The notes: a model not told the origin generated them from the sequence alone. A stretch of DNA of 64,000 nt from OCS155 cluster bacterium AG-426-D23 (GCA_003213165.1 QCNO01000002.1:74868-138867), one strand, 5' to 3'. Positions 40,303 to 56,011 are shown, counted from the first letter of the stretch. Program-made: numbers and translations.

Positions 40303-40857
40303 ATGTCATCTTCCAGTCATTTAGATAATGGGTTTTGGTGCACTTTGCCAAATAAAAAAGTAAACCCAGCCGACAAGAGTGAAGTAAGTGAGTTTAAAAA
40401 GAGGTATGGATTTGTAGAACCGTATCTTTCTATGGGATCTATCCCACCTCCAATAGATGAATTACCAAAAATTTTTATAAGATGGGGGCAAGAACCAGCT
40501 AAAGGCACTGAGTGGAAAAGCATTCAAAACGACCCACACCCACACAGACATGATATTAATTTTCCTATTACTGATTATGTTGAAAAGTTTCCTTTTGTAA
40601 ATCCTAAAACGAATGAATTTGAAGATAGAAATAGATGTCAAAAATGTCACAATGCACACAATAATAATGGTGAAGATTGCTGTGGAATGGGAGAAGAAGG
40701 GTGGGTATGTATAAATCCAACCAACATTTTTACATGGGATGAGTTATTAAAAGAATATGCAAGCTGCTATTTAAAAGTAGAAGAGAATTTATTTCCTGCT
40801 TTGGTAAGCAAAAAGAACAATCAAAAGAGAAATCGAAAAAATGGTAGAAGAAGATAA
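40303..40857 (+). CDS. hypothetical Cys/His-rich protein with basic tail (island operon gene 1)
   Basis: 184 aa; CQKCHNAH...DCCG...C cluster; C-terminal KKNNQKRNRKNGRRR; 17-nt overlap with the next gene. Confidence 0.6.
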   Translation: MSSSSHLDNGFWCTLPNKKVNPADKSEVSEFKKRYGFVEPYLSMGSIPPPIDELPKIFIRWGQEPAKGTEWKSIQNDPHPHRHDINFPITDYVEKFPFVNPKTNEFEDRNRCQKCHNAHNNNGEDCCGMGEEGWVCINPTNIFTWDELLKEYASCYLKVEENLFPALVSKKNNQKRNRKNGRRR

Positions 40858-42385
40858 GAACCTAGTTAATCTCGAAAAAAGATTTCTTGGAAATGTAAAT
40901 TTCTATTTCAATTTAGATAATTACTCAATTCAAAATTTTCATCAAGATTATAAAGAGTGGAAAAATGTTATGTTAGGAAGGCAATTCGAGTCACAAGGGT
41001 TTCAAAATTTTGAAGCTCTATTTTTAATCGCTTCTCATAACTACCTTAAAAAGAATCAACACTTTAAAGATAAGTCATACTATCTGAGGTATTTCGAGGA
41101 AAACATAATAACTGATGAGGCAGAAAAGAGCTTTGAAGAACTGGATTTTAATTATTATTTTATAAACAAACAAAATAAAATCGAAAAGCTAATTAGTGGC
41201 GCTGTTGAGTTGAGTAACGATTTAAAAATATGGTTATTATTCAACTTACGTCCCGACTCTACTGATAATAAAAATCAACTATCACCGACAAGTTTTTTTA
41301 GACTAAATCAAAAAGTAAATTATGTAGAAGAGGTTTATTTATTCCCATATATGATTTTGAAGACAGATATAAAAGATTTATTTTTTCAGATATATAAAAG
41401 CAATTGGTCATATGCTCAAACCCTGGTTGAAAGGTCAAAAATTATTGTCGACCCGGAACTTACTAAACAAACACATATTCAGAACGCATTCAAATCAATA
41501 AAAGAAAGCATGGAATGTTTTAAGGTTAGTTATCTTGAAAAACATGATGAAGAAAATGAATTTATCTATATTTATAAAAATAGTAAATCTGTAAGTAATT
41601 TATCCGGACTTCAAAAAGAAATAATTGGACAAAAGATTCTTTCAAATTATCCAAAAAAAACAATGGTAAAAGTGGGAGACCCAACTTACTGGTCAGTGTA
41701 TTCTGATTTGAATTTATTACAGTTTCTTATCGAATTTTCAAAAAAGATTGGAGAAGTATCTTCAACTACACTAAAAAGTGTCTTTGAAAGGATGGCTCCT
41801 TCATCTGATCAAAAAACCTATTATGCTTCCGATGCTCAAAAAACACAAAATTTTAAAAAGGGATTAGATAAACAAAAAGACGATGTTGGGATAGAAGAGT
41901 TGTCAGAATTTGGTTTATTTAATGAAAGCAATCTAGAGAGTAAATTATTAAAAGATGTTCTAAGTAATGTTGATATTAAAACTCAAGGTATTGATTTTGA
42001 TGATGAAGTTTATGAAAAAACAATGATTTTAGAGTTTTTAAAGGTCAACGCACAAGGTTTAAACGAGTATGAAGTCGAATTTTTAGAGATTTACTATGCA
42101 GAACTATCTGCGGAACAACCTGAGTTATATCTAATAATTTCTGAATATTTGAAAAAAAGAGAAAAACTCTTACATTTAATATATAAAGGGAAGATTATGC
42201 AAGAAAGTATTGAAAATAGAATCTTAGATCAACTGGGTGTTAGAAAAGTTGAAAAAGTAATGACATATTTTGATGCAATGGTTGAAAAAATTAATAAATA
42301 CAAAATTGATATTTTAAAACAAGAGAATACAAAAACAGATAAGTCATTAATAATCAACTATTTTCTATATAGGTTTTTGAAATGA
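40841..42385 (+). CDS. hypothetical protein (island operon gene 2)
   Basis: 514-aa uninterrupted ORF in very A+T-rich DNA; no motif recognised. Confidence 0.75.
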   Translation: MVEEDKNLVNLEKRFLGNVNFYFNLDNYSIQNFHQDYKEWKNVMLGRQFESQGFQNFEALFLIASHNYLKKNQHFKDKSYYLRYFEENIITDEAEKSFEELDFNYYFINKQNKIEKLISGAVELSNDLKIWLLFNLRPDSTDNKNQLSPTSFFRLNQKVNYVEEVYLFPYMILKTDIKDLFFQIYKSNWSYAQTLVERSKIIVDPELTKQTHIQNAFKSIKESMECFKVSYLEKHDEENEFIYIYKNSKSVSNLSGLQKEIIGQKILSNYPKKTMVKVGDPTYWSVYSDLNLLQFLIEFSKKIGEVSSTTLKSVFERMAPSSDQKTYYASDAQKTQNFKKGLDKQKDDVGIEELSEFGLFNESNLESKLLKDVLSNVDIKTQGIDFDDEVYEKTMILEFLKVNAQGLNEYEVEFLEIYYAELSAEQPELYLIISEYLKKREKLLHLIYKGKIMQESIENRILDQLGVRKVEKVMTYFDAMVEKINKYKIDILKQENTKTDKSLIINYFLYRFLK

Positions 42386-43218
42386 ATAAAAAACAATTAA
42401 AAGTAATATTACATCCAACGATAAAATCAAATTGTTCATTTGAACATTTTCAAAACTTTTTTTACCATAAACATCAACTTACAGAAAATAGCAACATAAC
42501 ACCTGTTGTAACTGAGGAAACACAAGAGAATATTTTTAAAAAGGTTGCTAAGAATATGGATAATCCTAAATATTTCGACCTTTTGCCAGAAGTTGAAAGA
42601 TTTGTAACAATTGACTCAAGTTTTAAAGATTTAATATTTAATGAAAAATTTTCATTAGGTCAGATCGTAAGTGTAAAGGATTATGGCTGGCCACACAGTA
42701 ACCAAGCTTCTATGGACGCAGTAGTCACTGGGTTAGGTTTTAAGGATATTTACTATGTTTCACCATTTACCTATGACTATGAATTAGCATCTAATAAGAG
42801 CACAATATTAAATGAAGATGAGACAAACATAGGTGCATCAATATCCATATTGAATGAATTTGAAATCCCAGTATTTAATACACAATTACAAAAATCAGAA
42901 TTTTCTATAACTGAAAAAGCCTTTGACAAAATTATAAAAACAGAAGATCCAAAAAATGTTTTTGAAAGCTACACAGGTGTACCATTAAAAAGAAAAGCTG
43001 ACTGGAGATATATGCCCAGAAAAATAATTGTGGACACTTCAATAAAGCTTGGAGCCAAGGCAAGTGAGTTTATTATGAATGGACCAAATAATATGAATGA
43101 ATACATTAATACACCAGAAATAGATTTTATTTTAACAAATGACAAAAACATTTTAGAAAATGAAACTTTGGCTGAAATATCTACAGAAGACCATAACAAA
43201 ATATTGGTGGCAGCATGA
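42382..43218 (+). CDS. hypothetical protein (island operon gene 3)
   Basis: 278 aa; ATGA overlaps on both sides. Confidence 0.75.
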   Translation: MNKKQLKVILHPTIKSNCSFEHFQNFFYHKHQLTENSNITPVVTEETQENIFKKVAKNMDNPKYFDLLPEVERFVTIDSSFKDLIFNEKFSLGQIVSVKDYGWPHSNQASMDAVVTGLGFKDIYYVSPFTYDYELASNKSTILNEDETNIGASISILNEFEIPVFNTQLQKSEFSITEKAFDKIIKTEDPKNVFESYTGVPLKRKADWRYMPRKIIVDTSIKLGAKASEFIMNGPNNMNEYINTPEIDFILTNDKNILENETLAEISTEDHNKILVAA

Positions 43219-46004
43219 ACATTGATAAAGAGCAATTTGAAGTACTTGAGCAGCATATGGAAAAATTAGATGAAGAATTTTTGTCAGATAAAACTCACGT
43301 ATTTACAGCTGTATCTAAATCTTCCTCAATAGGAGAGGCTAACTCAATACGAAGATTTCTAAGGTTAGAACTGGAAACTTCATCGAGAGTAAAAAAAATA
43401 TGTATTACTAACATTAAGTCACTTAAAAATGTTGAAATAGAACTGTCAAACTTAAATATTGTTGCAGGAATTAATTCAATTGGTAAAAGTACACTTTTGG
43501 AAGCAATAGCTCTATTACCAAGATATTTTGATTCAGAATTGGACATTATTCCACTAGGTGATGATAAATTTGGAAATAAGAATTTTAAAAATTTTCTTTC
43601 AACCAATGTCGAGTTAGATGAATTTTCTTCAATAAGCATTATTTATGACAACATATTTCAAGGAAAAACAATTGGAGAAGTTGTCCTTAGCTTTAGCTTC
43701 GATGATTCATTGAGAGACATGTTGCCAGGGCTTACAAAAGCTGGGAGGGCTTTAGAAATTGCAAAAATAAATTATTTACCAATTAAATCAATCTCGTTAG
43801 AAGTTCTTCAAGACCCTCAGAAAACCAAGGGAATGGATATCGTACCTATAAAAGCAAAAATTGAATTAGAAAATAATAGAAAAAAATATAATACAAAATC
43901 TTATGATCTCGGAACTTATATAGAAAAAAATAGACTTTTTGGAAGCTCAAAAGATAAAGAAAACCTACACAAAGAGTTTCAAGATAAATACAAAAATAAA
44001 GAAAACTATACCTTCACAGTATCCGTAAATACTCCTGAAGAATCAGCATCATCAATTGATAATAAAGTTAGTTTGCACAACTTAAATTTTGATAAATTTA
44101 GTTATAAGTTATCAAAACAAACAATATCCAAAGACGTTGTTGTAAATAAACATAAAACAGAAGCAGAATACGAATTTAATGGAAATATGACAGTAGAAAT
44201 TTCTAAGTATCTTCGCTTGCTTATTCTAGATATTATTGCATCTGAAAATAACAATTTAAAAGACAATAATGAATTTAAAAATCAATTTAAAAAACTCTTT
44301 TTTAATATGCTAAATGAAACAAAGAATATTCAATTAAGTAAAGAAAAATTAAACGAATTTATAAAGATTGCAGAGAAAAACACATTTGATGATATGGGCA
44401 TACAACGTGAATTAGCAATGAATAGCACGCTTCAATATTTGATGGGGCTACGAGCTCAAGCATACAGCATTCTCAATCAAAGTTACAGGACAACAAATAT
44501 GGGTGGCGGCCCTTTAAGTAGAAAGAAAGGATTAAAAGACGGAACTTATTTTAAAGGAATATTTGACTGGATTAAACTAGAAGATCTTGATACCTCTTTA
44601 CAGAAAAAAGTTAAAATCAAAAAAATTCATAATGATGTACTTGAATTGTGGTTTGATGATACGTTTAATTCAGAAAAAATTACAGAATATATTGATGACA
44701 ATAAGAATATATTAAAAGAAAGACTCAAAGCATTAAATGTTAATAATGAAATTGGAAAATTTTTTGACTCAGCATACGGAGACTATGCAAACTTCTTGAA
44801 CGAGTGTTCAAAATATATCAACAAATATTCTGAATTAATAAAAAGTGAAAATTTTGAATCTGCAAAAAAATATATTGATGAATTTATCGACAAAGTAACA
44901 CTCCAACTAAAAAAAGATAATGTTAGTTATCCTTTTAATTCGAATTTACACAGTTCAATAAGCACTGATCTAAAGAGTTTTACCCTGAGAGATTTAATAT
45001 TAATGAAAATTTGTCATAAAAATTACAACGATGATGATCTTCTTGTGCCCTTATATAAAGTAAAAGATTTAAAAATGCCAAAATTCATAAATGCATTTTT
45101 AAGTCAAGGTACAAATACAGATATTACAGAGGTACCAATTTTTGATGCTATTAAAAATTTTAAAAATATACAGTTCTTAGGACCATTAAGAGACAGAGGA
45201 GATTCAACAAAGCTGTTTTATAAAAAAGAAATTCCCTTTACGTTGGGTATTTTTGGTGAGTATTCCAAAATATTTCTCAAGGAAAATGCACTTGAAAAGA
45301 GTGAATTTGTTACACCAAAACTATTTGATGAAAAGTTTATCAACTTAATAATAGATAAAAATAAGTTTCAACAAACTTCCTTTGCTGACAAACTAATTAT
45401 TTTAAGAAAAGAAGGCGTTTTGTCTGAGCTTACATACATTGACTTTGTATCTAAGTGGGGAAAGTATTTAGGAATATGTGAAAAGTTTGAAATTAATAAC
45501 GAGTCTGAGTCTCCTTCGATTTTTGTTGTTGATTCCAGTGGAAATAGTGTAGATATTGTAAACGTTGGAATTGGGGTAAGCCAAGTATTGCCGGTAATAC
45601 TAATTTGTTCACTAGCAGGACTTAATAGATCTGAATTTACTTTAAAAGATCCAAATATAATTTTATTGGAACAACCAGAATTACACTTACATCCTAAAGC
45701 ACAGGCTAAACTTGCAGATTTCATACTTGCTAATTCGTTAATAGATTCTATAGTTTTGGAAACTCATTCTGAATATACTCTGAATAGATTGAGATACAGA
45801 CATGCACAATTTGGTTCATTTTTAGGTGATCACATAAATATTAATTATGTCAGAAAAGATAGTAAAAATAATCCTGCTTTTGAGAGAATACTAATCAATG
45901 AAGAAGGTGGTTTAAATGCCTATCCCGAAGACTTCTTTGATCAATCGCAGCTTCAAGCACAAGACTTTATTAAATTAAAAATCAGTAAAAAAGGTAAAAA
46001 GTAG
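43215..46004 (+). CDS. ABC-type ATPase of the OLD / AAA_15-AAA_21 / DUF3696 kind with a very long insertion (island operon gene 4)
   Basis: Walker A VAGINSIGKSTLLEAI (about aa 84-99); near the C-terminus VGIGVSQVLPV, Walker B IILLEQPELHLHP, H-loop VLETHSEYTLNRLR. Confidence 0.85.
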   Translation: MNIDKEQFEVLEQHMEKLDEEFLSDKTHVFTAVSKSSSIGEANSIRRFLRLELETSSRVKKICITNIKSLKNVEIELSNLNIVAGINSIGKSTLLEAIALLPRYFDSELDIIPLGDDKFGNKNFKNFLSTNVELDEFSSISIIYDNIFQGKTIGEVVLSFSFDDSLRDMLPGLTKAGRALEIAKINYLPIKSISLEVLQDPQKTKGMDIVPIKAKIELENNRKKYNTKSYDLGTYIEKNRLFGSSKDKENLHKEFQDKYKNKENYTFTVSVNTPEESASSIDNKVSLHNLNFDKFSYKLSKQTISKDVVVNKHKTEAEYEFNGNMTVEISKYLRLLILDIIASENNNLKDNNEFKNQFKKLFFNMLNETKNIQLSKEKLNEFIKIAEKNTFDDMGIQRELAMNSTLQYLMGLRAQAYSILNQSYRTTNMGGGPLSRKKGLKDGTYFKGIFDWIKLEDLDTSLQKKVKIKKIHNDVLELWFDDTFNSEKITEYIDDNKNILKERLKALNVNNEIGKFFDSAYGDYANFLNECSKYINKYSELIKSENFESAKKYIDEFIDKVTLQLKKDNVSYPFNSNLHSSISTDLKSFTLRDLILMKICHKNYNDDDLLVPLYKVKDLKMPKFINAFLSQGTNTDITEVPIFDAIKNFKNIQFLGPLRDRGDSTKLFYKKEIPFTLGIFGEYSKIFLKENALEKSEFVTPKLFDEKFINLIIDKNKFQQTSFADKLIILRKEGVLSELTYIDFVSKWGKYLGICEKFEINNESESPSIFVVDSSGNSVDIVNVGIGVSQVLPVILICSLAGLNRSEFTLKDPNIILLEQPELHLHPKAQAKLADFILANSLIDSIVLETHSEYTLNRLRYRHAQFGSFLGDHININYVRKDSKNNPAFERILINEEGGLNAYPEDFFDQSQLQAQDFIKLKISKKGKK

Positions 46005-46210
46005 AAAAACTTTTACAGTTTTAATAATGTGGGCAGGATTAAGAAAACGCCCGCGTCTTAAACCCAGGGCCAAATATTACTGGTACCGAGGTGTTTTAAG
46101 GGATTAAATATCCAAATATTTACTCCCTTCATGAATAAAAAGTTCAGAAGTTCTGAAATATTTTTCAATAATATTTTACCTTCCTGCTTTTTACAGGCTT
46201 CACGCCGCAA

Positions 46211-46246
46211 GGCCAGAAGGGGTCTACTCCTTTCTACCCTCTGGCC
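46211..46246 (+). other. GC-rich stem-loop upstream of the 46275 gene
   Basis: GGCCAGA(a)GGG ... CCC-TCTGGCC; followed by TTATGAATTTATTGAGAGGAGGGCATTTATG. Confidence 0.55.
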
Positions 46247-46274
46247 TTATGAATTTATTGAGAGGAGGGCATTT

Positions 46275-46862
46275 ATGCCTATAATTAACGCCTTTGGCGG
46301 ACAGAGATTAATCGGCTTTATAAACAAAAAGCCGTTAGTCGCAAAATTTAAAGTCGACATCGATTCATTCGAAGTTGGGTTTAATCAAAAAATCTTGGAT
46401 AAAGAGTATGCAGGTCAGTTTGATAAAAACTTACTTGGTTCATCTTTAGAGATCCTAGAGAAAAGGTATACAGCACCTTTGGGTAAGCCATATAGCACCA
46501 TGGGGGCAAAAGGTACCTCAACAACAGTTAGCACACTACCTTGGATTGCATCTCTAATAGATGCAGCAGAAGTAGAAATGGGATCTGGAAATAAACAGAT
46601 TTCAAAAGAGCTTTTTGAGAAAATCGCTCAGGCTATTTATGCATCAAATGCATTCCACAGGTCAGACTTAGAGAGCGGATTGATAACATATTTGGATGTT
46701 TCTAAACAATTCAATTTACAACCATCAGGTCAATATAAGTACACAGAGATGGGTATAAATAGACTGTTTAGTCAATTTTCAAAAAATATGTCTGTTTTTT
46801 CACAGATAACAACTATCCCACATAGTTATTTGCTCTTTGAGAAAAGTGCCAAAGTCGCCTAA
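46275..46862 (+). CDS. hypothetical protein (195 aa)
   Basis: Start set at the internal ATG at 46275, preceded by GAGGAGGG. The 48 upstream codons of the track ORF cover the structured intergenic region. Confidence 0.65.
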   Translation: MPIINAFGGQRLIGFINKKPLVAKFKVDIDSFEVGFNQKILDKEYAGQFDKNLLGSSLEILEKRYTAPLGKPYSTMGAKGTSTTVSTLPWIASLIDAAEVEMGSGNKQISKELFEKIAQAIYASNAFHRSDLESGLITYLDVSKQFNLQPSGQYKYTEMGINRLFSQFSKNMSVFSQITTIPHSYLLFEKSAKVA

Positions 46863-46995: not shown

Positions 46996-48261
46996 TTGAG
47001 TAATACAAAACTAAAAGTAATAGATAATAAAGAGTTAAAATTTAGCATCACACTCGATGATGTTGAATTGCTACAGTCATTATCTAAAACAACAAAATCA
47101 GAAAAGCAAAAAATAGTTCAAACAATATTTGAGCTCGGCTTAAAGATTTGGAAAATTCAGAGCGTAGAGGTAGATTATCAAAAACTTGACGATCAGAGAG
47201 AAAAAATTGTTAAGTCATTTGAATCAGCTTCAAAAAATGCTGAAAGCAACCTATCTGATTTAACTGATAAATTGCTTAAAGGCAAAAACGGCAGACTTGC
47301 TCTAGCTGTAGACAGAGAAGCAAAAAATTTAGAGAAACAACTGGGCCAACTATTTGAGTCAGATAATAAAAAATCTGTCCCATCAAAAATAGAAAAAGTT
47401 GTTGAATCAACAGTTGCAGAAGTTGTTTCTGAAGTCCTAGAGGAGATCAAGTCTATTACAGACGCTTCAGACGTAAATAGTCCACTGTCAAAAATTAAAG
47501 ATCAGATTCTTAAAGGGGTTTTAGAACCAGTTAATAAAATAATGGAGGATTTCGAGGATGTCTCCAATGTTATTAAAACCCACTCTCTTGTAAAACAAGA
47601 GTTCGAAAAAGGCTCTAACAAGGGATTAGTTTTCGAAGATCAGGTTGGTGATATTTTAGAGACATTTACAAATATCTCTGGAGACTTTATAGATAGAGTT
47701 GGAAACACAGAAGGAGCTTCTAAAACAGGTAAAGGTAAAAAAAAGGGAGACCATGTCGTCATTGTTGGAGATGCAGATGGTAACTCTTCTAGGGTGGTTT
47801 TTGAGGTTAAAAATATTAGCAAAAAACCATCAGTTAATTCTGTAATTAAGCTTCTAACCCAGTCTTGTAAAAATAGACAAGCAGCTGTCGGTGTTTATGT
47901 TGCATCAACTAAAGAGTCGGCCCCAGTGCAGTCTGCATTTTCGAGACTAGCTCCGAATATGTACTCGGTTGTAGTTAATAAAGAGACACTAGACACCCTT
48001 GCATTAGAAGTTTGCTACCAGGTTTCTAAACTTGAGGCATTAGCAAAACTTCAACAAACAACTGATAGCGAGAATATAGATTTTGAAGCGATTCAAAGTA
48101 ATTTAAAAAATCTTGCATCTTTAACCGAGATTGTGTCACAGATCAGAGGTAATGTATCTAAAGCAGAAACTGATCTTGACGATGCCCATGGGAATATAAA
48201 CAATCTTGAGTCACAGTTAAAAGATTCTGTATCAGAACTAAAAAAAGAGTTAAAAAAGTAA
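46996..48261 (+). CDS. coiled-coil protein with C-terminal PD-(D/E)xK-like motif
   Basis: TTG start after AAAGGAG; helical/charged N-terminal 220 aa; KGDHVVIVGDADGNSSRVVFEVKN (D...E-x-K); C-terminal coiled coil. Confidence 0.7.
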   Translation: MSNTKLKVIDNKELKFSITLDDVELLQSLSKTTKSEKQKIVQTIFELGLKIWKIQSVEVDYQKLDDQREKIVKSFESASKNAESNLSDLTDKLLKGKNGRLALAVDREAKNLEKQLGQLFESDNKKSVPSKIEKVVESTVAEVVSEVLEEIKSITDASDVNSPLSKIKDQILKGVLEPVNKIMEDFEDVSNVIKTHSLVKQEFEKGSNKGLVFEDQVGDILETFTNISGDFIDRVGNTEGASKTGKGKKKGDHVVIVGDADGNSSRVVFEVKNISKKPSVNSVIKLLTQSCKNRQAAVGVYVASTKESAPVQSAFSRLAPNMYSVVVNKETLDTLALEVCYQVSKLEALAKLQQTTDSENIDFEAIQSNLKNLASLTEIVSQIRGNVSKAETDLDDAHGNINNLESQLKDSVSELKKELKK

Positions 48262-48271
48262 AAACTCTTAC

Positions 48272-48316
48272 AGTCTTATTTACAGAAGGCAAGCAAACCT
48301 TTCTGTATCTAAGACT
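48272..48316 (+). other. bipartite stem-loop upstream of the 48345 gene
   Basis: AGTCTTA-tt-TACAGAAGG-caagcaaa-CCTT(T)CTGTA-tc-TAAGACT; followed by ATGAAGCTAATAGATAAAGGAGGGCATTATG. Confidence 0.6.
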
Positions 48317-48344: not shown

Positions 48345-48659
48345 ATGCCAAACAATAAAGTAGCAAAACTACCTACTAAGGTAGAAAAACCATTCTGGAA
48401 GCAAGGCTTTCATAAAATACCGGAAGTTCTTTCCATTTCAGATATTGCTGAATACCTTAGAGTGCCAGAGGCAACAGTTGAAAGTCTCATAACTAGTGGA
48501 GATATTCAAACACTTCCTGGAATTGAGGAGAAAAGAGTATTCAAAGGCTTTTTTCTTTCTTACTTAACCCAATCACATCCAGAGTCTATGGGTCTAATGG
48601 GAAAACCAGAGGATGCTATTCCTACTGGCATTAGAAACTCAGTAGGAGCTGGATTCTAA
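48345..48659 (+). CDS. excisionase/MerR-type helix-turn-helix DNA-binding protein
   Basis: ISDIAEYLRVPEATVESLITSGDIQTLPG (HTH_17-like). Confidence 0.65.
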   Translation: MPNNKVAKLPTKVEKPFWKQGFHKIPEVLSISDIAEYLRVPEATVESLITSGDIQTLPGIEEKRVFKGFFLSYLTQSHPESMGLMGKPEDAIPTGIRNSVGAGF

Positions 48660-48670
48660 TTTACCTACCA

Positions 48671-48695
48671 ATGCCCTACCAAAAAGGTAGGGCAT
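48671..48695 (+). other. perfect 10-bp hairpin occluding the SD-like GGTAGGG and the first two nt of the next start codon
   Basis: ATGCCCTACC-AAAAA-GGTAGGGCAT; an extra CCTACCAA copy lies just upstream (48664-48671). Confidence 0.6.
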
Positions 48696-49176
48696 GATGA
48701 ACATATTACATAAAGGAGATATTTTGGAACAAGAGACTAAAAAAGGCGAAGAAGTGAGTGTGAGTGCATTTAAAAGTATTAAAAAATTAGAGAATTTTAT
48801 AGTAAACGGTGAAGACTTAAAAACTAAAATTGACAACCATCCAAGAGTTATTTCTTACCTATCAGATCACACTGATGGTTCAACTTGGTATGGTGCAGAT
48901 GTTTTAGTAGTTTTTAGAAAAACATTAGAAATGAAACACTGGGTTTCTAGATCTTCTTCACATCAATTAGTAGAAACAAAGCACGCTAAAGGTATAGCTT
49001 GGGTATTTATTGTTTTAGGCAACATATATGTGGAAAAAATTGACTCTATTACTAAATACTTTTTTTATGCAGATCTTGCAAAAGCAGCAAATTCATACCT
49101 GGAAAGATCAAAAGGTGAAGTTAATTTGAAAAGTCTTTTACTTGAAATTGTTAGGAGCTCAAAAAAATATTTATGA
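48694..49176 (+). CDS. hypothetical protein (160 aa)
   Basis: Uninterrupted ORF; no motif recognised. Confidence 0.6.
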   Translation: MMNILHKGDILEQETKKGEEVSVSAFKSIKKLENFIVNGEDLKTKIDNHPRVISYLSDHTDGSTWYGADVLVVFRKTLEMKHWVSRSSSHQLVETKHAKGIAWVFIVLGNIYVEKIDSITKYFFYADLAKAANSYLERSKGEVNLKSLLLEIVRSSKKYL

Positions 49177-49256
49177 AAGAACGATTAAAAGAAATATGGA
49201 AAGAAACAATAAAAAAACATATCAGAAGATGGAAGACTCTTCCTGGCATGGCGTAG
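49173..49256 (+). CDS. possible 27-aa basic peptide
   Basis: ATGA overlap with the preceding stop; MKERLKEIWKETIKKHIRRWKTLPGMA*. Confidence 0.3.
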   Translation: MKERLKEIWKETIKKHIRRWKTLPGMA

Positions 49257-49284
49257 TTTATTAAAATATAATTGAAAGAAAGTA

Positions 49285-50025
49285 ATGACAATTAGAACAA
49301 GAAATATTTATGATCCCAGCGATGATAAACCATACAAATTAAGCAGATCTAAAGTTGATAATTTTATTCGTTGTAAAAGATGTTTTTACATTGACAGACG
49401 ACTAGGTGTTTCCGAACCACCAGGTTTCCCTTTTAATATCAATTCAGCAGTCGATGAACTCTTAAAAAAAGAATTTGATTTATACAGAAAAAAGGGAGAA
49501 CCACATCCTTATATGCTAGAAACAGGTAAAAATCTAATTCCATTTCAACACGAACTACTTGATGAATGGAGGGAAAACTTTAAAGGCGTTCAGTACCATC
49601 ACAAAAAAACAAATTTTATCCTTACAGGTGCAGTCGATGATTTATGGTTTGATTTAGACACAGAAGAAGTAATTGTCGTTGACTATAAATCTACCTCTAA
49701 AAATTCAGAAGTAACAATTGATGAAGAATGGCAGGATGGATACAGAAGACAAATGGATTTTTATCAATGGTTGATGAGAAAAAATGGATTTAAGGTTTCC
49801 AATTCTGGATATTTTGTATATTGCAATGGTGATAAAAGTAAGAGGAAATTCTCAAATAAAATCTCATTTAAGGTTTCCATTTTAGAATATGTTGGAAATG
49901 ATTATTGGGTGGAAGACACAATATTAGAAATAAAGCAAATACTCAACTCGAACAAATTACCAGAAACTAGTAATGAATGTAAGATGTGTTCGTTCATAAA
50001 TTCACACCAGGAGGTGACTAAATAG
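49285..50025 (+). CDS. PD-(D/E)XK nuclease, Cas4/RecB-like with Cys cluster
   Basis: N-terminal CKRC, GAVDDLW, VVDYKST (D/E-x-K), QMDFYQWL (QxxxY), C-terminal YCNG / CKMC. Confidence 0.75.
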   Translation: MTIRTRNIYDPSDDKPYKLSRSKVDNFIRCKRCFYIDRRLGVSEPPGFPFNINSAVDELLKKEFDLYRKKGEPHPYMLETGKNLIPFQHELLDEWRENFKGVQYHHKKTNFILTGAVDDLWFDLDTEEVIVVDYKSTSKNSEVTIDEEWQDGYRRQMDFYQWLMRKNGFKVSNSGYFVYCNGDKSKRKFSNKISFKVSILEYVGNDYWVEDTILEIKQILNSNKLPETSNECKMCSFINSHQEVTK

Positions 50026-51119
50026 TGCCTAAAAATTTAGAAAGAGATATAAGATCAATGATGTCTAGCATCGGAAGTAATATATCTGAAAAATTTAAAA
50101 ATATTAATGGAAAAACAGCAAAAAATAATGTACCTGATCATTTATGGCAAAAGAGAACTCATAGAAAGAACAGGGTGCTGACGTCCTGGAAAAGCGTTCA
50201 TCGAAATGAATTAAATTTTGATCAATTAGAAACTTTTGATGGAGGAATAGTTGTTGAGTTTGTAAATGACGATTTTTTTAATCCATTATTTTCTGAGAAT
50301 GATGTCTATAAAGAACTTAAAAACAGAGTCGGAAGTGATGAAAACGTATCTTCAATAATTTCTTTCAGGGTAGAAGAGGGAGATTCTGGGGCCAATGTTG
50401 CCAGAGAAAGTTATGCTAAATTTCAAAAAATGTTTCCTGACTTTACACTTTCTCCAATAGTTAGAAAAGAAGGATCTTTTAGGAATGTAGGTATGGGAAA
50501 TGATAAATGGGAAGGAAATAGCTATATTTTTATTCAAGGTGGACAACAACATTCCATAAATAGCCATGATCATTTTAAACAAAATCTAGGATTTAAAAAT
50601 CCACAATTATTTAATCCTGCAAATGAATTTGCAAATGAACAAGTCCGTAAAGACTTGTACATTTCACTTACTTATTTTTTTCTACACTGCCACGATATAA
50701 ACCATTATGTAGAAAGTGCTCTATTACAAAATTTAAAAGAAGGATGTGAGTCCTATTTAAATTCTAGAAACTATGATCATGTTAATTTGTTAGAATATTG
50801 CATTAATCATCCATCTATTGCTTGGGAAAAAGGTGTTTTAATGGACCCAATTGCTGTTGAAAGGCTTAATGTTTTAGATTTTGATGTTAAATGGGATTTT
50901 GAAAATCCTCTTTGTATAGCAATTTGTCATAATCAGCCGGTAAATAAAGACATTTTTGTTTATGATCATAAAAATAATTGTATACTTACACCCGCTCAGC
51001 CTACTAATGTGTTTTGGGGTAAACAATCATCAAACATGATTCAACAAAGCCACAAACTTGATGATTATTTTAGGCTTGAAGAAGCAAGGGTCGAAAAAAG
51101 AAGGCCTTATCTTAGTTAA
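50025..51119 (+). CDS. hypothetical protein, candidate restriction endonuclease partner
   Basis: GTG start overlapping the previous stop by 1 nt; contains MDP-x13-DVK and AICHNQPVNK...N strings, but the fold is not assignable by eye. Confidence 0.55.
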   Translation: MPKNLERDIRSMMSSIGSNISEKFKNINGKTAKNNVPDHLWQKRTHRKNRVLTSWKSVHRNELNFDQLETFDGGIVVEFVNDDFFNPLFSENDVYKELKNRVGSDENVSSIISFRVEEGDSGANVARESYAKFQKMFPDFTLSPIVRKEGSFRNVGMGNDKWEGNSYIFIQGGQQHSINSHDHFKQNLGFKNPQLFNPANEFANEQVRKDLYISLTYFFLHCHDINHYVESALLQNLKEGCESYLNSRNYDHVNLLEYCINHPSIAWEKGVLMDPIAVERLNVLDFDVKWDFENPLCIAICHNQPVNKDIFVYDHKNNCILTPAQPTNVFWGKQSSNMIQQSHKLDDYFRLEEARVEKRRPYLS

Positions 51120-51160
51120 ATGTGAAATATTGTCAGATATAATCTTTAGAATTAAAAATA

Positions 51161-52408
51161 ATGGAAAATAGCTTATTTAAACAAAATCTAAAATACTTAG
51201 AAAATATTTTATCTAATAGTGAAATTGATAAGTTAGAAAAATCTTTTAATACTAAATCATTTAAAGATCAAAAAGAAGAGGTCGGGTATTTTACTGAAAA
51301 ATATAATCACATGATTAAGTTAAAACATCAAAAAGAATATAAAGATTCAGATAAAGAATTAAATAAATTTCTTAATAAAAAATCATCTAATACAAAAATT
51401 ATTTGGGGAGATTGTCTGACAGCTTTAAAAAAAATGGATAGTGAATCAATACAATTAATGGTTACTTCTCCACCTTATTACAACGCAAGAGATTATTCGC
51501 AATGGAAAAATATCGATGAATATTTAGATGATATGAGAGATATTATTAAGGAAACATGGAGAGTTTTAGATAACCACAGAGTTTGGGTATTTAATGTTGG
51601 AGATATTTTCGATAACCCAAATACCAAAACAACTTCTGTGTGGGGAAAGCAACGTATCCCACTTGGAGCATACTTTATACAGATATTTGAAGATATCGGA
51701 TTTACGTTTGTAGATGACTTTATTTGGGATAAAGGGGAAGTTCAAAGTCAGAGGCAAAAAAATGCTGACAACCCTTATCCAATGTATCAGTATCCTATTA
51801 ATGCATATGAACATATTCTTATATTTCATAAACATAGATTAGATACAACTAAATTTCCATGCCCAAGATGTGGAAGCCTACAGGTAAATGGCAATACACA
51901 AAGTGAACCAGGTTTGCAAAGTTGGGAGTGTAAGAATAATGATTGTCCTGAAAGAAGCGCTTCTAATCGTGGAAAGAGGTTTTCGCTAAAAACCAACATG
52001 ACACAGTCAGACCAATTAAGAACAAATGAAAATCATATAGATGAAGAGTTTATAAAAAAATGGAGAAAAGACATAATCTCTTTTCCACCAGTAATAAAAA
52101 TAAATTCAAAAGGCGAAAATATTCTTGGACATACCGCTCCTTTTCCTGATTTAATCCCAGAGTATGCAGTAAAAATGTTTACATATAAGGGCGAAAAGGT
52201 CCTAGACCCTTTTGCAGGAAGTTTTACTTCTCCTAAAGTTGCAGCTGAACTTGGAAGGGTTGGTATTGGAATAGAGTTGAATAAAAAAATGTTCGGAAAG
52301 TCAATTATGAATAAATTAACCTCAGGTGAAGATAAGCTTTTTGGATCTAACCTAACAGTAGAGGAATTTAGTTTGCTAAAAGAAAAGAAAGAAAATAGAC
52401 AAATTTAA
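51161..52408 (+). CDS. DNA methyltransferase (N6-adenine or N4-cytosine, beta class) with zinc-ribbon insert
   Basis: Motif IV MVTSPPYYNARDY, C-terminal motif I VLDPFAGSFTS; insert CPRCGSLQ...ECKNNDCPERS. Confidence 0.88.
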   Translation: MENSLFKQNLKYLENILSNSEIDKLEKSFNTKSFKDQKEEVGYFTEKYNHMIKLKHQKEYKDSDKELNKFLNKKSSNTKIIWGDCLTALKKMDSESIQLMVTSPPYYNARDYSQWKNIDEYLDDMRDIIKETWRVLDNHRVWVFNVGDIFDNPNTKTTSVWGKQRIPLGAYFIQIFEDIGFTFVDDFIWDKGEVQSQRQKNADNPYPMYQYPINAYEHILIFHKHRLDTTKFPCPRCGSLQVNGNTQSEPGLQSWECKNNDCPERSASNRGKRFSLKTNMTQSDQLRTNENHIDEEFIKKWRKDIISFPPVIKINSKGENILGHTAPFPDLIPEYAVKMFTYKGEKVLDPFAGSFTSPKVAAELGRVGIGIELNKKMFGKSIMNKLTSGEDKLFGSNLTVEEFSLLKEKKENRQI

Positions 52409-52447: not shown

Positions 52448-52894
52448 CTAAGCTAAACCCCTGCATGTAGAACAGTATTTAATATTTTTCTTTTCTTTTA
52501 GAAATAAATTGAGACAATACCAAGCCTTACAACTTGTAGCCTCATAGTTATAACAAATAAAATCTGAACACCACTCATCACATTTGTGTACCTTGTCATC
52601 TAAAGCATCAATCAATATCTTGAGTTCGTGATCTGTTATTAAACTAAAAGGTTTTTTGTTTCGAAGGTTGTAACTTGCTCTCCAATCAAGAGAGTATTTG
52701 TAGCCATCGTAACAACCAAAACACATACCTCTACAGTCTTCATAACATGGATCAGGACCCTCATCAAAAGGTTCAATCAATGAGGCTATAGATAATACCT
52801 TGTCAAAATTGTTGTTTGTTTTTAAGTGTTTCCAGGTTTCTTCTTCAAGAATCTCTTTAATTGCTAGTTGAATTCTTGTCTCTACCTTAACCAT
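52448..52894 (-). CDS. hypothetical Cys-rich protein
   Basis: 148 aa with about 15 Cys (CYEDCRGMCFGCYDGY; CDEWCSDFICYNYEATSCKAWYC; YCSTC). Confidence 0.55.
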   Translation of the reverse strand: MVKVETRIQLAIKEILEEETWKHLKTNNNFDKVLSIASLIEPFDEGPDPCYEDCRGMCFGCYDGYKYSLDWRASYNLRNKKPFSLITDHELKILIDALDDKVHKCDEWCSDFICYNYEATSCKAWYCLNLFLKEKKNIKYCSTCRGLA

Positions 52895-52960
52895 ACAGTT
52901 TTATTCTAGAAAGCGAGGAAGACAAAAAAGTGTCACACCTCATTTTTATATTCTTATTAA

Positions 52961-53401
52961 ATGAAAGATATTGAATATAAAGTAATTCGATTTTTAATAT
53001 TTATAGGATTATTGTTTGTAAATTATCATGTACTGATGCTCTTTACTTCTTTTATTGCACCTGAAAGTTTTTTAAATGACGTAAGAAGAATTGGTGGATT
53101 CTTTATAAATCTTCTGGGGATTCATGTTTTGTTTGCTTTTGGAACATATTTTTATTCAAGAATGTATCTCAATTTCAAAATTAAATTCTACTTGTTAGGA
53201 CTGTCTATTATCACGCCTCTGTTGTATTTATTCTTTAACCTTGAATATCTACATACAATTCAAATGCCTGATATATCTATTATTGTTGCATCTTTTTTCA
53301 TCATTAATCTATTTATTAAGGATTTTAAATATAACTTTATCTGGCATTATTTAAACGTCTTGATAGACCCTTTTTACAAGGACGATGTTGAACCTTTTTA
53401 A
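52961..53401 (+). CDS. small polytopic membrane protein
   Basis: 146 aa, 4 TM helices. Confidence 0.5.
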   Translation: MKDIEYKVIRFLIFIGLLFVNYHVLMLFTSFIAPESFLNDVRRIGGFFINLLGIHVLFAFGTYFYSRMYLNFKIKFYLLGLSIITPLLYLFFNLEYLHTIQMPDISIIVASFFIINLFIKDFKYNFIWHYLNVLIDPFYKDDVEPF

Positions 53402-53486
53402 TAAATTAATTTACTCCTATTTTGTATTTAATGTTGTAACTAAATGGATAGTCGATAGGGAAATTAAATATGAATTGTGAAAGAAT

Positions 53487-54956
53487 ATGATCAGAAAGCT
53501 GTTTATTTCAATTTGGATTTTCTCTTGGTCTATATTCGCTGTTGATCAAATTTCATTTGCCTTTAAGCATTTGACTTCAACTAACACAACTACAGAAACT
53601 TTAGTTGTTAGTGAGAAATCATTAAACAATAATGAAACAGGTTTAAACAAAAATCAAAATGATTTTGTTGGCAAGGACGCCGAAGAACTATCTGAGAGTA
53701 TTTGTTTTAATGAGGAATTTTGGTCTTCAGTAGAAGCAGAAATAACTGAGGATAAAAGAAACTTTACAATTTCATTTCCCTCTATTCCAAATAAAAATGA
53801 TATAAAGTCAATAGACATAATTGTTAAGCCAATCACAATTAATTATGAAAGTTCTAAAAATGCTTTTCATATGCATTCGATCCGTCAGTCACGACTTAAC
53901 ACCAACCAAAAAGAGCATGAGTTTCAATTAGATTTAATTGATGGAATCGATACAAATTACTCGTATTTAGTGAAAGACTGGAAGCTAGATATAATCGCAA
54001 GCTCAAATAATTTAGCTGATTGTTATGAATCAACAGTTCTTCGATTTAATAGTGAAGACTATGAAAACGTTTCTAATTTATCAGTTTTTTATGAAAAAAA
54101 TATAATAAGTCCAATTTTTGAAAAAAATTATGATGTTCAAGAATTTCAAGAGCAACAATATTTGAATCAATTCTTCCAAAAATTAGAACTAAAAAAATTA
54201 CAAAAAACTCTACCACCTCCACATGAGGCAGCACTTGCTCTGCTCAATAAAGATGTTAAATATGATTTTAGTAAATCAAAAAAAGGCGAAGAGTATGTTA
54301 ACGAGTATATTTCTGATAGACAAAGATTAACTGGAGAGGTAAATATTGGTTTATTTGGAAATGCTACGAGTTATGACCTACATGTGGTGAATAATGTATT
54401 AAATATATTAAATATTGTCGCTCCTGATTTAAAAATTTCTTACTCTGACAACCCTGCAGACGTGAACCTACCTATACATTTTGCTCATTGCACAAAGAGA
54501 TTTTCTGAGTTAGTAAATGACTGTAGAAGTAAATTTGCTGGAATATTTTATCATTCTCATAGCAAACTAGAGAATGCAAAGTTTGGTTGGATTTGGGTTG
54601 ATTCTCAGTATTCAAAGTCAATGAGAGAACATATTCTCATACATGAACTAGGACACGCTTTAGGCCTCGGTCATAATCTGTGCAGTAATTCAGTGATGTC
54701 TTACTCTAAGTTTGCTGATTCAATGCCATATTTTACAGAAATTGATCTAATGCAATTAAGACTGTTATATGATCCAAAATTAGAAGAAATATATAACAAT
54801 TTTCAAGTTATCGAAGATCTGGATCTAAACCCAGATATTTATTCAGATTATATTTACAACAATAAACCTATGTGCAGTCCACAACAAGGAGGCTGGAAGG
54901 ATTTTGTTAAGTTTCAAAAAGGTCTTAAAAAAATCGATGAGTTCTTAGATTATTAA
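53487..54956 (+). CDS. secreted metzincin-type zinc metalloprotease
   Basis: N-terminal signal-like helix; HELGHALGLGHN (HEXXHXXGXXH) and downstream SVMSY Met-turn. Confidence 0.8.
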   Translation: MIRKLFISIWIFSWSIFAVDQISFAFKHLTSTNTTTETLVVSEKSLNNNETGLNKNQNDFVGKDAEELSESICFNEEFWSSVEAEITEDKRNFTISFPSIPNKNDIKSIDIIVKPITINYESSKNAFHMHSIRQSRLNTNQKEHEFQLDLIDGIDTNYSYLVKDWKLDIIASSNNLADCYESTVLRFNSEDYENVSNLSVFYEKNIISPIFEKNYDVQEFQEQQYLNQFFQKLELKKLQKTLPPPHEAALALLNKDVKYDFSKSKKGEEYVNEYISDRQRLTGEVNIGLFGNATSYDLHVVNNVLNILNIVAPDLKISYSDNPADVNLPIHFAHCTKRFSELVNDCRSKFAGIFYHSHSKLENAKFGWIWVDSQYSKSMREHILIHELGHALGLGHNLCSNSVMSYSKFADSMPYFTEIDLMQLRLLYDPKLEEIYNNFQVIEDLDLNPDIYSDYIYNNKPMCSPQQGGWKDFVKFQKGLKKIDEFLDY

Positions 54957-55057
54957 AACTGATTCTAGATTTAAATAATTTTTCATATACGCCAATCATC
55001 GCGAAAACTTTACCTCTGAAAAAACAACTAAAACCTAAATCTGGCACTATATGCATT

Positions 55058-55552
55058 ATGCAAGATTATAAGAGACAAAATCTCTCAGTAAACGAGAGAA
55101 AGATAGTTGAACTCACTCTTCAAGGTGAAAGTCAGATAGATATTGCCAACAAATTAGATATTGCCCCAAGTACCGTGTATAGAACATTAAGAAGAGAACA
55201 TATCCAAGGTATGATTACATCAGCCACACAAGGATTGATGTCTTCTTTAGTTCAGAAGATGCTGCAAAACTATGAAAAAGCTCAGGAGAGAATCAGTAAA
55301 GAAATTGATACTATGTCTATCCAAAATGTAATTTATTATATTAATCACGTAAAACAAGCACTTCAACACATCCATATCGATGTAGCAAAAAACGAAATGC
55401 AGAAATTACAAGATGCCAAAGAAGGCGTAGCTGTTGTAAAGGTAAAATACAGTGACACCGATGCAATGTTTGATAAACAGGTTAAAAATGCCTTACGAGA
55501 ATTTGGTATTCCAGAAGATGTGATCCAACAACAGAACTTTAAATATGGATAA
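55058..55552 (+). CDS. HTH DNA-binding protein (sigma-70 region 4 / LuxR-like HTH at N-terminus)
   Basis: LSVNERKIVELTLQGESQIDIANKLDIAPSTVYRTLRR. Confidence 0.55.
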   Translation: MQDYKRQNLSVNERKIVELTLQGESQIDIANKLDIAPSTVYRTLRREHIQGMITSATQGLMSSLVQKMLQNYEKAQERISKEIDTMSIQNVIYYINHVKQALQHIHIDVAKNEMQKLQDAKEGVAVVKVKYSDTDAMFDKQVKNALREFGIPEDVIQQQNFKYG

Positions 55553-55603
55553 TATTTACTTTTTGATTTTCTCATAAAATCAAAAACTTGTTTTAATAAA
55601 AAT

Positions 55604-56011
55604 ATGAACGTAAAAACATTAAATGTAAAGATAGATGAATTTGTGTCCTACACAATGAGTTTTTTGAATAACATTCAAGTCTTTCATTGGCAGACACAAT
55701 CCTATGCAGAACATGAGGCATTAGGCGAATATTATGAAAGCCTTACAGACTTAAACGATAAGTTAGTTGAGTCATGGCAGGGAAATCAAAATACCAGACT
55801 CAAATTTAGCGAAGGACCTTATTCTTTAGAAAATTATTTCTCTAAAGAAGAAACCAAAAATAAAATTAATGAATTCAAAAATCAAGTGACTCAGTTATCA
55901 GGGTTTGTAGCAGAATTAAACGAATCAAACTCCTTTGATGATATAGAAAATATCTTAGAAGAGATCTCTGAAGTAAACAGCAGAACATTGTACCTGCTAA
56001 GCTTGAGCTAA
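55604..56011 (+). CDS. ferritin-like / Dps-like four-helix protein
   Basis: FHWQTQSYAEHEALGEYYESLTDLNDKLVE resembles the Dps ferroxidase helix pair; weak call. Confidence 0.45.
   Translation: MNVKTLNVKIDEFVSYTMSFLNNIQVFHWQTQSYAEHEALGEYYESLTDLNDKLVESWQGNQNTRLKFSEGPYSLENYFSKEETKNKINEFKNQVTQLSGFVAELNESNSFDDIENILEEISEVNSRTLYLLSLS

Follow-up and report, generated by a model that had tools for sequence, protein, structure and literature searches.

We analyzed a 64,000-nucleotide stretch of DNA from OCS155 cluster bacterium AG-426-D23 (GCA_003213165.1 QCNO01000002.1:74868-138867), hereafter the window, whose positions are counted from its first letter. The window contains an operon of ~5.7 kb at 40303-46004 in which four genes overlap successively by 17, 4, and 4 nucleotides (nt). 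A preliminary description of this DNA had placed the four plus-strand open reading frames (ORFs), encoding 184, 514, 278, and 929 amino acids (aa), at exactly these positions. With moderate confidence, we interpret the operon as a conflict system that belongs to the accessory genome of Candidatus Actinomarina and is most probably anti-phage; it would combine an ATP-binding cassette (ABC) ATPase with a partner of toxin fold. The genes and the predicted domain of the third are as follows.

40303-40857, plus strand: gene 1, ORF of 184 aa; W12, H116, C127, and C155 are invariant in this small protein, whose C-terminal tail is basic
40841-42385, plus strand: gene 2, ORF of 514 aa; mostly alpha-helical, with an invariant DxTYWSV motif; hypervariable allele
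42382-43218, plus strand: gene 3, ORF of 278 aa; alpha/beta region at the N-terminus, MazF-fold domain (predicted) in the center, helices at the C-terminus
42649-42981, plus strand: predicted MazF/PemK-fold domain of gene 3, residues ~90-200 (AlphaFold2, Foldseek, PDB profile search)
43215-46004, plus strand: gene 4, ORF of 929 aa; ABC ATPase of the NsnB clade with a giant insertion (Insert-1) and a DUF3696 tail

Only gene 4 is recognizable from family models, as the preliminary description had stated. It matches the Pfam families AAA_15 (E = 3.4e-19), AAA_21 (1.2e-12), and DUF3696 (6.8e-07), all above cut-offs; genes 1-3 have zero matches in Pfam, PADLOC, NCBIfam, and PHROGs. The best PADLOC match of the ATPase is NsnB (2.4e-40), followed by PDC-M55A (2e-29), HEC-03B (7.5e-25), and AriA (2.6e-18), and there are further matches to the OLD, GajA, and PtuA models, mainly through head motifs. 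Alignment to the NsnB profile covers residues ~58-105 and 600-918 and skips Insert-1, a stretch of ~500 aa located between Walker A (residues 84-93) and the Q-loop position (653-662). A match to SMC_N (SMC, structural maintenance of chromosomes) reaches 17 bits against a cut-off of 40 and is confined to the Walker A region. The following segments were located in gene 4, where A2 denotes an alignment of five diverged ATPase alleles.

43464-43493, plus strand: Walker A, AGINSIGKST (K91); G90, K91, S92, and T93 invariant in A2
43605-45134, plus strand: Insert-1, residues ~131-640; most variable part of the ATPase, skipped by the NsnB profile
45171-45200, plus strand: QFLGPLRDRG (residues 653-662), arginine-containing loop at the Q-loop position; invariant in A2
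45561-45584, plus strand: NVGIGVSQ (residues 783-790), GxG replacing the SGG signature; invariant in A2
45663-45695, plus strand: Walker B, LLEQPELHLHP (residues 817-827), E819-Q820 replacing the D-E dyad; invariant in A2
45825-46004, plus strand: DUF3696 tail, residues 871-929 (Pfam DUF3696 at 873-912); best conserved segment between close alleles

The wider pattern AGxNSxGKST (84-93), the motif ETHSEY (849-854), and the tail motif GGLxxYPxDFFDQSQ (898-912) are likewise invariant in the five alleles. NsnB itself is described as having an arginine at the Q-loop position, GxG in place of SGG, a degenerated Walker B dyad (E-N), and a DUF3696 tail (PMC12065111). Among solved structures, the N-terminal Walker A region is closest by sequence to AriA and OLD. 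Judged from its sequence, gene 4 belongs to the ABC ATPase superfamily, in the AAA_15/OLD-ABC branch, and its head is of a derived NsnB-clade type, but its length and Insert-1 differ greatly from NsnB. The preliminary description had been right that the head motifs are not of SMC type, the motifs found being those of NsnB, and had numbered the Walker A lysine as K90, which is corrected here to K91. The C-terminal half of gene 4 also matches a phage protein family of unassigned function (phrog_21420, 4e-34), and phages thus also encode relatives of this ATPase clade. Viral contigs searched with gene 2 and with the core of the structured RNA described below yielded no match.

The expectation that the four families would be found together elsewhere is borne out. 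The same gene order and coupling recur in independent single-amplified genome and metagenome assemblies, in at least seven diverged marine versions with 29-100% identity, and the operon is therefore not a chance run of ORFs; it is inherited as a four-gene unit. Members of these families are extremely rare. An exhaustive HMMER search with gene 2 gave 10 matches among 1.84 billion representative proteins; in word-indexed searches, gene 2 retrieved 2 clusters and the ATPase 4 full-length ones. The window lies on a contig of the single-cell genome GCA_902596715.1. Just upstream of the operon, the endonuclease IV gene falls in a cluster at >=90% identity with 'deoxyribonuclease IV [Candidatus Actinomarina sp.]', and a housekeeping neighbor of one diverged operon copy is named '[Acidimicrobiia bacterium]'.

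More distant relatives came from a scan in which the ATPase alignment was run against genomes that each represented one species. The 80 loci listed are generic NsnB-like ATPases, matched mostly through the C-terminal half at 24-41% identity. About 13 of these 80 have a translationally coupled cassette upstream of an ATPase of 530-730 aa; all are from Actinomycetota, mostly Acidimicrobiales, and are referred to here as high-GC cassettes. Their proteins upstream of the ATPase measure ~125-170, ~320-340, and ~273-430 aa, and scans of the high-GC homologues of genes 1-3 with Pfam, PADLOC, and NCBIfam returned nothing usable. Profile comparison by hhalign connects the marine and high-GC versions of gene 3 (probability 91.5%, P = 8e-7 over 138 columns) and is suggestive for gene 1 (P = 4e-4), against P >= 0.03 in cross-family controls. 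A locus from Acidimicrobiales (L067, 7383-14184) carries homologues of genes 1 and 3 and the ATPase without a gene 2 analogue, and a 1148-aa Helicase_C protein overlaps its ATPase stop; this may represent a variant in which three of the genes are kept and the fourth component differs.

An indication of a toxin-type partner comes from gene 3. Its AlphaFold2 model, built on a 14-sequence alignment, has an overall pLDDT (predicted local distance difference test) of 67.7, rising to 81-91 over residues 90-200. When this model was compared with the PDB by Foldseek, the top 50 matches were all MazF-family toxins, with E-values down to 8e-5, a probability of 1.00, and TM (template modeling) scores, normalized to the toxin, of 0.60-0.73. 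When every PDB sequence was searched with a domain profile, five matches were retrieved, all five being Mycobacterium tuberculosis MazF6 or MazF9 (E = 0.27-1.0), with alignments colinear over nearly the whole toxin. A MazF-like strand pattern is visible by eye in the high-GC homologues, and an arginine aligns with that of the MazF 'RP' motif in 12 of the 13 high-GC homologues when placed through the profile alignment to MazF6. We take the 'RP' arginine to be catalytic (general acid/base); the position of the partner threonine of MazF could not be placed reliably in the gene 3 alignment. A profile built from genes 1 and 3 fused retrieved nothing beyond four close variants of marine gene 3. The model thus assigns a MazF/PemK-fold domain to gene 3. 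The preliminary description had seen no recognizable motif in genes 1-3, which holds for the family libraries and no longer for the predicted fold of gene 3.

Genes 1 and 2 are less readily interpreted. The cluster of cysteine and histidine residues and the basic tail previously remarked on in gene 1 are present, and W12, H116, C127, and C155 are invariant in a 16-member alignment (A4), in which H116, C127, and C155 probably form a metal site. A combined marine and high-GC profile of gene 1, searched against the PDB, reaches MazF only (E = 1.1-2.6), a profile from the high-GC proteins has MazF as one of the two PDB sequences that it reaches, and one family member matches PemK_toxin with E = 0.07. 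Gene 1 may possibly possess a MazF/PemK-like core, which we offer as a lead only. For gene 2, AlphaFold2 gave a poor model from a five-sequence alignment (pLDDT 55.8), with which Foldseek found no match. The protein at the gene 2 position of the high-GC cassettes ends in a helix-turn-helix (HTH) of sigma-70 region 4 / LuxR type, matching many solved structures with E = 0.0016-0.03; in the hhalign comparison, marine gene 2 and this analogue gave a non-significant P of 0.08.

Population data show how variable the operon is. At the nucleotide level, loci L009 and L003 are 97-100% identical to the window over genes 1-3 and the downstream genes and 56-76% identical over the ATPase gene only, with divergence boundaries that coincide with the ends of that gene. 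In locus L001, gene 2 alone is replaced (56-76% identity there, compared with 97-100% in the flanks). Loci L104-L106 match the window at 97% in lysA, 96% in p195, and 99% in p421, the latter two being downstream neighbors, compared with 59% in gene 2, 66% in gene 3, and 41% in gene 4. Locus L109, whose lysA is 91% identical, has a further allele set of 209, 541, 288, and 957 aa in the same slot; among the 8 loci retrieved when metagenomes were scanned with p421, this one alone was informative on linkage. Each haplotype occurs in at least two independent assemblies, which rules out chimeric assembly as the source of the mosaic. Genes 2, 3, and 4 are thus deeply diverged alleles exchanged gene by gene in a near-identical background. 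The ATPase is the most polymorphic component here and Insert-1 its most variable part: between close alleles, Insert-1 is 51-54% identical compared with 78-85% for heads and tail (85% for the DUF3696 tail), and between distant alleles the figures are 23-27% and 42-71%. In clusters at 90% identity, operon proteins have 2-52 members (52 for gene 1), against 700-1693 for the flanking housekeeping genes.

The conserved marine stretch does not end with the ATPase gene. Upstream of the operon lies lysA, a GMC oxidoreductase, or NUDIX/NrtR, three contexts unrelated to one another, and in each of them the operon is followed by a 270-nt spacer, two proteins designated p195 and p421, an HTH_17 protein, and usually a further protein, p160. 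The description of the locus as a four-gene unit therefore needs qualification: the four genes are conserved and co-inherited, but in marine loci the conserved stretch runs past 46004 to a structured RNA, p195, p421, and the HTH gene. These downstream features, and three from the low-GC stretch beyond them, are listed below.

46044-46251, plus strand: structured RNA of ~210 nt with four hairpin domains (alignment A12, RNAalifold), within the spacer 46005-46274
46275-46862, plus strand: p195, neighbor conserved in all marine contexts; 195-aa product with no assigned function
46996-48261, plus strand: p421, coiled-coil-like at both ends, with the motif D252...E270-x-K272 at its center
48345-48659, plus strand: HTH_17 / excisionase-like protein of 104 aa (Pfam HTH_17, 2.7e-5); conserved position
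53487-54956: M10-like metallopeptidase/DUF2927 protein, in the low-GC stretch
55058-55552: HTH_38 protein, in the low-GC stretch
55604-56011: DUF5856 protein, in the low-GC stretch

The RNA is a previously undescribed element supported by covariation. It is kept at the nucleotide level where the flanking proteins are only 35-50% identical, and RNAalifold predicts 66 pairs, 15 of them with compensatory changes. Paired cells amount to 97%, compared with 42-52% in slid controls, and double changes affect 15 pairs compared with 1-3; none of 500 shuffles reaches the observed values. The single-sequence fold has a z-score of -4.46 (-3.35 for the opposite strand), and the plus strand is favored because 46 G-U cells would become A-C mismatches on the other strand. 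With a covariance model, the element was detected behind the ATPase stop wherever a marine locus has sequence in that position; no high-GC locus contained it. No Rfam 15 family matched anywhere in the window at its gathering score; the best sub-threshold match for the element, on the opposite strand, reached 23 bits against 58.7. Partial extra copies occur at two loci, namely a second, 5'-partial copy 8.5 kb downstream at a contig end (L109, 14972-15073) and a stretch in which the first ~100 nt are duplicated in tandem (L101, 8321-8420), and these may be recombination joints or repeated regulatory units.

The last hairpin (46206-46251) carries an apical loop at 46224-46235, CUACUCCUUUCU in the window and CCUCCUUUC in other lineages, that is complementary to the Shine-Dalgarno sequence of p195 (46260-46269), 25 nt downstream. 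A mechanical ORF of 243 aa (46131-46862, plus strand) runs through the structured RNA; we set the start of p195 at 46275 because of most database gene calls and the strong Shine-Dalgarno sequence GAGAGGAGGG at 46260-46269. Given the complementarity, the simplest reading is that the RNA is a candidate new cis-regulatory leader of p195 that would act by sequestering the Shine-Dalgarno sequence. The motif AAAAACTYTTACAGTYT lies exactly at the stops of the ATPase gene (46005-46021) and p421 (48260-48276) on the plus strand, and recurs at the corresponding positions of other loci; possibly it serves as a promoter, operator, or processing signal common to the unit of RNA and p195 and to the HTH gene. 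A third copy with 2 mismatches is found inside gene 2 at 42162.

The two proteins that follow the RNA resist assignment. No meaningful match for p195 came from the PDB profile search. In p421, the central motif GDHVVIV...VVFEVKN looks PD-(D/E)XK-like by eye only, a resemblance neither backed nor refuted by Pfam, PHROGs, and PDB profile searches, all of which gave no match. The HTH_17 gene forms the border between the conserved neighbors and a variable restriction-modification cassette. In the window (48345-52408, plus strand), it is followed by a Cas4-like PD-(D/E)XK nuclease, after which come a protein of 364 aa and an N6_N4 methylase. Locus L107 also has the Cas4-like nuclease, other contigs have an HsdR-like helicase with N6_Mtase/Eco57I/Methylase_S genes, and in L081 a high-GC cassette is followed by two HsdM genes. 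As seen in the window and in L009, L098, L104, and L107, the segment past HTH_17 is a swappable cassette. Weak matches to the MADS1 and MADS3 models, far below cut-offs, were noted for the HTH protein and the ATPase N-terminus.

The G+C content is 0.28 across 41-45 kb, compared with 0.33-0.38 in the flanks, and remains low (0.29-0.31) to ~56 kb, with small unassigned ORFs at 52448-56011. As housekeeping genes, including phosphonate transport, resume after ~56 kb, the island spans ~40.3-56.2 kb. No att-like direct repeats or tRNA genes bound it, and a consensus promoter and terminator scan performed no better than on shuffles. The defense-like setting suggested in the preliminary description is upheld, in that the operon is accessory and hypervariable and lies in a variable island with restriction-modification genes. 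A published survey of the host order reported no identifiable toxin-antitoxin (TA) or CRISPR systems and noted a hyperdiversified island, specific to the genus and carrying restriction-modification genes of types I-III, without describing this operon (PMC7771536); the locus fits that island.

By analogy with Menshen, HEC-03, PARIS, and Septu, a working model for the operon can be put forward. An ATPase oligomer would hold its partner via the conserved DUF3696 tails, with the MazF-fold domain of gene 3 in the docking role played by the inactive PIN domain of NsnC. The hypervariable Insert-1 and gene 2 might recognize a phage component. Nucleotide binding would serve as a switch and not a motor, with glutamine replacing the catalytic glutamate (E-Q), and this switch would release or activate a toxic component, gene 1 and/or gene 3. 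The component would probably act on RNA and stop the growth of the infected cell, and allele turnover would reflect selection by phages escaping particular sensor alleles.

Several points count against this interpretation. We infer the role in defense, by analogy, from relatives, neighbors, and the population pattern only, and no catalytic effector was identified among the operon proteins. The position of the 'RP' arginine is occupied by serine or leucine in all five marine gene 3 homologues; as this residue is replaced, catalysis has possibly been lost, and the marine domain may be non-catalytic in parallel with the inactive PIN of NsnC. AlphaFold2 confidence in gene 3 is limited to the central domain, the similarity of gene 1 to MazF is not significant, and gene 2 has no assignable fold on its model, its equivalence to the high-GC HTH protein being positional only and unproven. 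Moreover, the operon family comes from one bacterial class, with ~10 diverged versions among the matches listed, and alignments are shallow. Finally, every marine locus has the RNA, p195, p421, and the HTH gene after the operon, so that the functional unit may extend beyond the four genes.

On that last view, which we regard as unlikely, the operon, RNA, p195, p421, and HTH gene would form one system, with p421 as nuclease effector and the RNA as a regulator or decoy. The order of elements behind the ATPase gene, constant across all three unrelated contexts, is what it would predict, and it gains from the D...ExK motif of p421, from the absence of an evident intrinsic terminator after the ATPase gene, and from cluster sizes in the L098 lineage, where p421 (22 members) resembles genes 1-3 (11-19) more than the housekeeping neighbors (255-327). 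However, the high-GC cassettes lack the RNA, and no relatives of p195, p421, or p160 were found near them, so the four genes can stand alone and constitute the evolutionarily conserved core. The p195 cluster is about six times that of gene 1 (302 members vs 52), and p421 (75% identical) and p195 (50%) evolve more slowly than the operon proteins (35-47%) across the same lineages and stay outside the allele swapping. In addition, the gaps of 270, 133, and 83 nt and the shared intergenic motif suggest separate transcription units, and no search backed p421 as a nuclease.

The operon might instead be a selfish, TA-like addiction or stabilization module residing in a recombination hot spot, without specific anti-phage benefit. 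The MazF fold predicted for gene 3, the tight translational coupling, the accessory distribution with low G+C, and the HTH of the high-GC gene 2 analogue, as found in many antitoxins, are all in keeping with such a module. It is nevertheless quite improbable: a 929-aa sensor-type ATPase, a hypervariable insertion, and gene-by-gene allele replacement are foreign to simple TA systems, the closest relatives of the ATPase belong to validated defense systems, and Pfam, PADLOC, and NCBIfam detected no MazE-like antitoxin. A lineage-specific housekeeping or regulatory complex, for example in RNA processing or ribosome quality control with MazF-fold proteins under ATPase control, is very unlikely. While lysA adjoins the operon across a gap of 40 nt, the neighboring leader RNA has an anti-Shine-Dalgarno-like loop, and MazF toxins can target the anti-Shine-Dalgarno sequence of rRNA (PMC12274833), flanking housekeeping genes have clusters 15-30 times the size of those formed by the operon proteins, and the operon sits in three different genomic contexts and in a restriction-modification island. 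Alleles of 41-66% identity within a 97%-identical background are also incompatible with a conserved role. A loop-extruding, plasmid-restricting complex of SMC, kleisin, and KITE type, as in Wadjet or MksBEF, is scarcely credible, since the analogy drawn in the preliminary description has in its favor only the size order 514/278/929 aa and the weak SMC_N match (E = 0.004) and is rejected on domain topology, namely the insertion before the Q-loop (Insert-1, not at the SMC coiled-coil position), the NsnB-type head motifs, and the MazF fold, not KITE, of gene 3.

We return to the operon as an accessory, most probably anti-phage, conflict system. Were it immune in function, the consequences would extend beyond this locus. 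Few free-living marine bacteria are smaller or more abundant than Candidatus Actinomarina, and its extremely streamlined genomes would still be investing ~5.7 kb in a sensor-effector system. The MazF fold would join PIN as a partner of NsnB-clade ATPases, widening the rule of 'ABC ATPase plus toxin fold'. The 41-66% alleles of the ATPase insertion and genes 2-3 would amount to a natural experiment pointing to the phage-recognizing parts, in a pattern that points to frequency-dependent selection in the open ocean. Independently of this, the structured RNA adds a new candidate cis-regulatory motif with covariation support.

Among known systems, Menshen (NsnA-NsnB-NsnC; Millman et al. 2022; PMC12065111) and HEC-03 come nearest to the operon. 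Menshen and the operon both have an AAA_15 head with a DUF3696 tail, an arginine at the Q-loop position, GxG, and a degenerated Walker B dyad (E-Q in the operon, E-N in NsnB). Both also appear to include a partner of toxin-superfamily fold that is possibly inactive, as in the inactive PIN of NsnC, and strong polymorphism of partner and sensor. In published Menshen models, the DUF3696 tails of the NsnB dimer clamp the inactive PIN N-terminal domain of the effector. The operon differs in having four genes with the ATPase last, a partner of MazF and not PIN fold, and an ATPase of 929 aa compared with ~345 aa for NsnB, owing to the ~500-aa Insert-1. No match to NsnA or ParB-DUF262 was found at E <= 0.1 in genes 1-3, their neighbors, or the high-GC cassettes (Pfam, PADLOC, NCBIfam), and none to NsnC, PIN, or a C-terminal nuclease among the operon proteins (Pfam, PADLOC).

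HEC-03 pairs an ABC ATPase with a VapC-like PIN protein and is a validated anti-phage system in which both genes are required (Payne et al., bioRxiv 10.1101/2024.01.29.577857). The PADLOC label HEC-03B denotes the ATPase model; in the preprint, the ATPase is HEC-03A and the PIN protein HEC-03B. The operon shares the same broad ABC ATPase clade and a type II toxin-fold partner, but HEC-03 has two genes and a PIN RNase, whereas the operon has four genes, a MazF fold, and a giant insertion and is known from sequence alone; no PADLOC model matched genes 1-3 and the Pfam scan gave no PIN domain. PARIS (AriA-AriB), Gabija (GajA-GajB), Septu (PtuA-PtuB), and OLD likewise use an AAA_15/OLD-type ABC ATPase as sensor or scaffold for an effector. 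The likeness is one of generic head motifs, since the operon lacks Toprim, HNH, DUF4435, and UvrD partners; the earlier remark that no Toprim, HNH, or DUF4435 partner is present was confirmed for genes 1-4 and their neighbors with Pfam, PADLOC, and NCBIfam. Wadjet and MksBEF have an SMC coiled coil and hinge inserted between Q-loop and signature, in contrast to the insertion before the Q-loop here, and no match to JetA/B/D, MksE/F, kleisin, or KITE was found in the operon (Pfam, PADLOC, NCBIfam).

With MazEF/PemIK, the operon shares the predicted MazF fold at the center of gene 3, which spans the full toxin length, and possibly a relative in gene 1. It differs in that gene 3 is a 278-aa multidomain protein, lacks the conserved arginine in marine versions, and is embedded in an ATPase operon, and no MazE, PemI, or AbrB-like antitoxin matched genes 1-2 (Pfam, PADLOC, NCBIfam). 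The toxins of type III TA systems (ToxIN, AbiQ) are endoribonucleases with a Kid/MazF-related fold that are neutralized by an adjacent structured RNA. The parallel is a loose one: structured RNA adjoins the operon in marine loci, but it is one multi-hairpin element of ~210 nt that follows the ATPase gene, unlike an array of tandem repeats preceding the toxin gene; it resembles a leader of p195, and the high-GC cassettes lack it. The apical loop of the RNA contains the motifs U^CCUU and UU^CCU, at which mycobacterial MazF toxins are known to cut, MazF-mt11 removing the 16S anti-Shine-Dalgarno sequence (PMC12274833). A functional link between the MazF-fold proteins and the RNA is speculative and suggested by adjacency only. 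It is quite improbable, though conceivable, that operon, RNA, p195, and p421 make up one immune module, a hybrid of protein and RNA combining Menshen-like with type III TA-like logic; if true, toxin-type immunity would have been described for the first time in a lineage in which TA and CRISPR systems are reported to be lacking.

For every system considered, a defining feature is missing (DUF262, PIN, Toprim, SMC coiled coil, or MazE), and the operon thus stands outside all named systems. The preliminary description had concluded that the operon fits no known system. It matches no catalogued defense system, but the ATPase head is of the clade of Menshen NsnB and HEC-03, whose partners have toxin folds. 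On the sequence evidence, the operon is most probably a previously undescribed four-gene combination of an ABC ATPase of the NsnB/HEC-03 clade with a toxin-fold partner.

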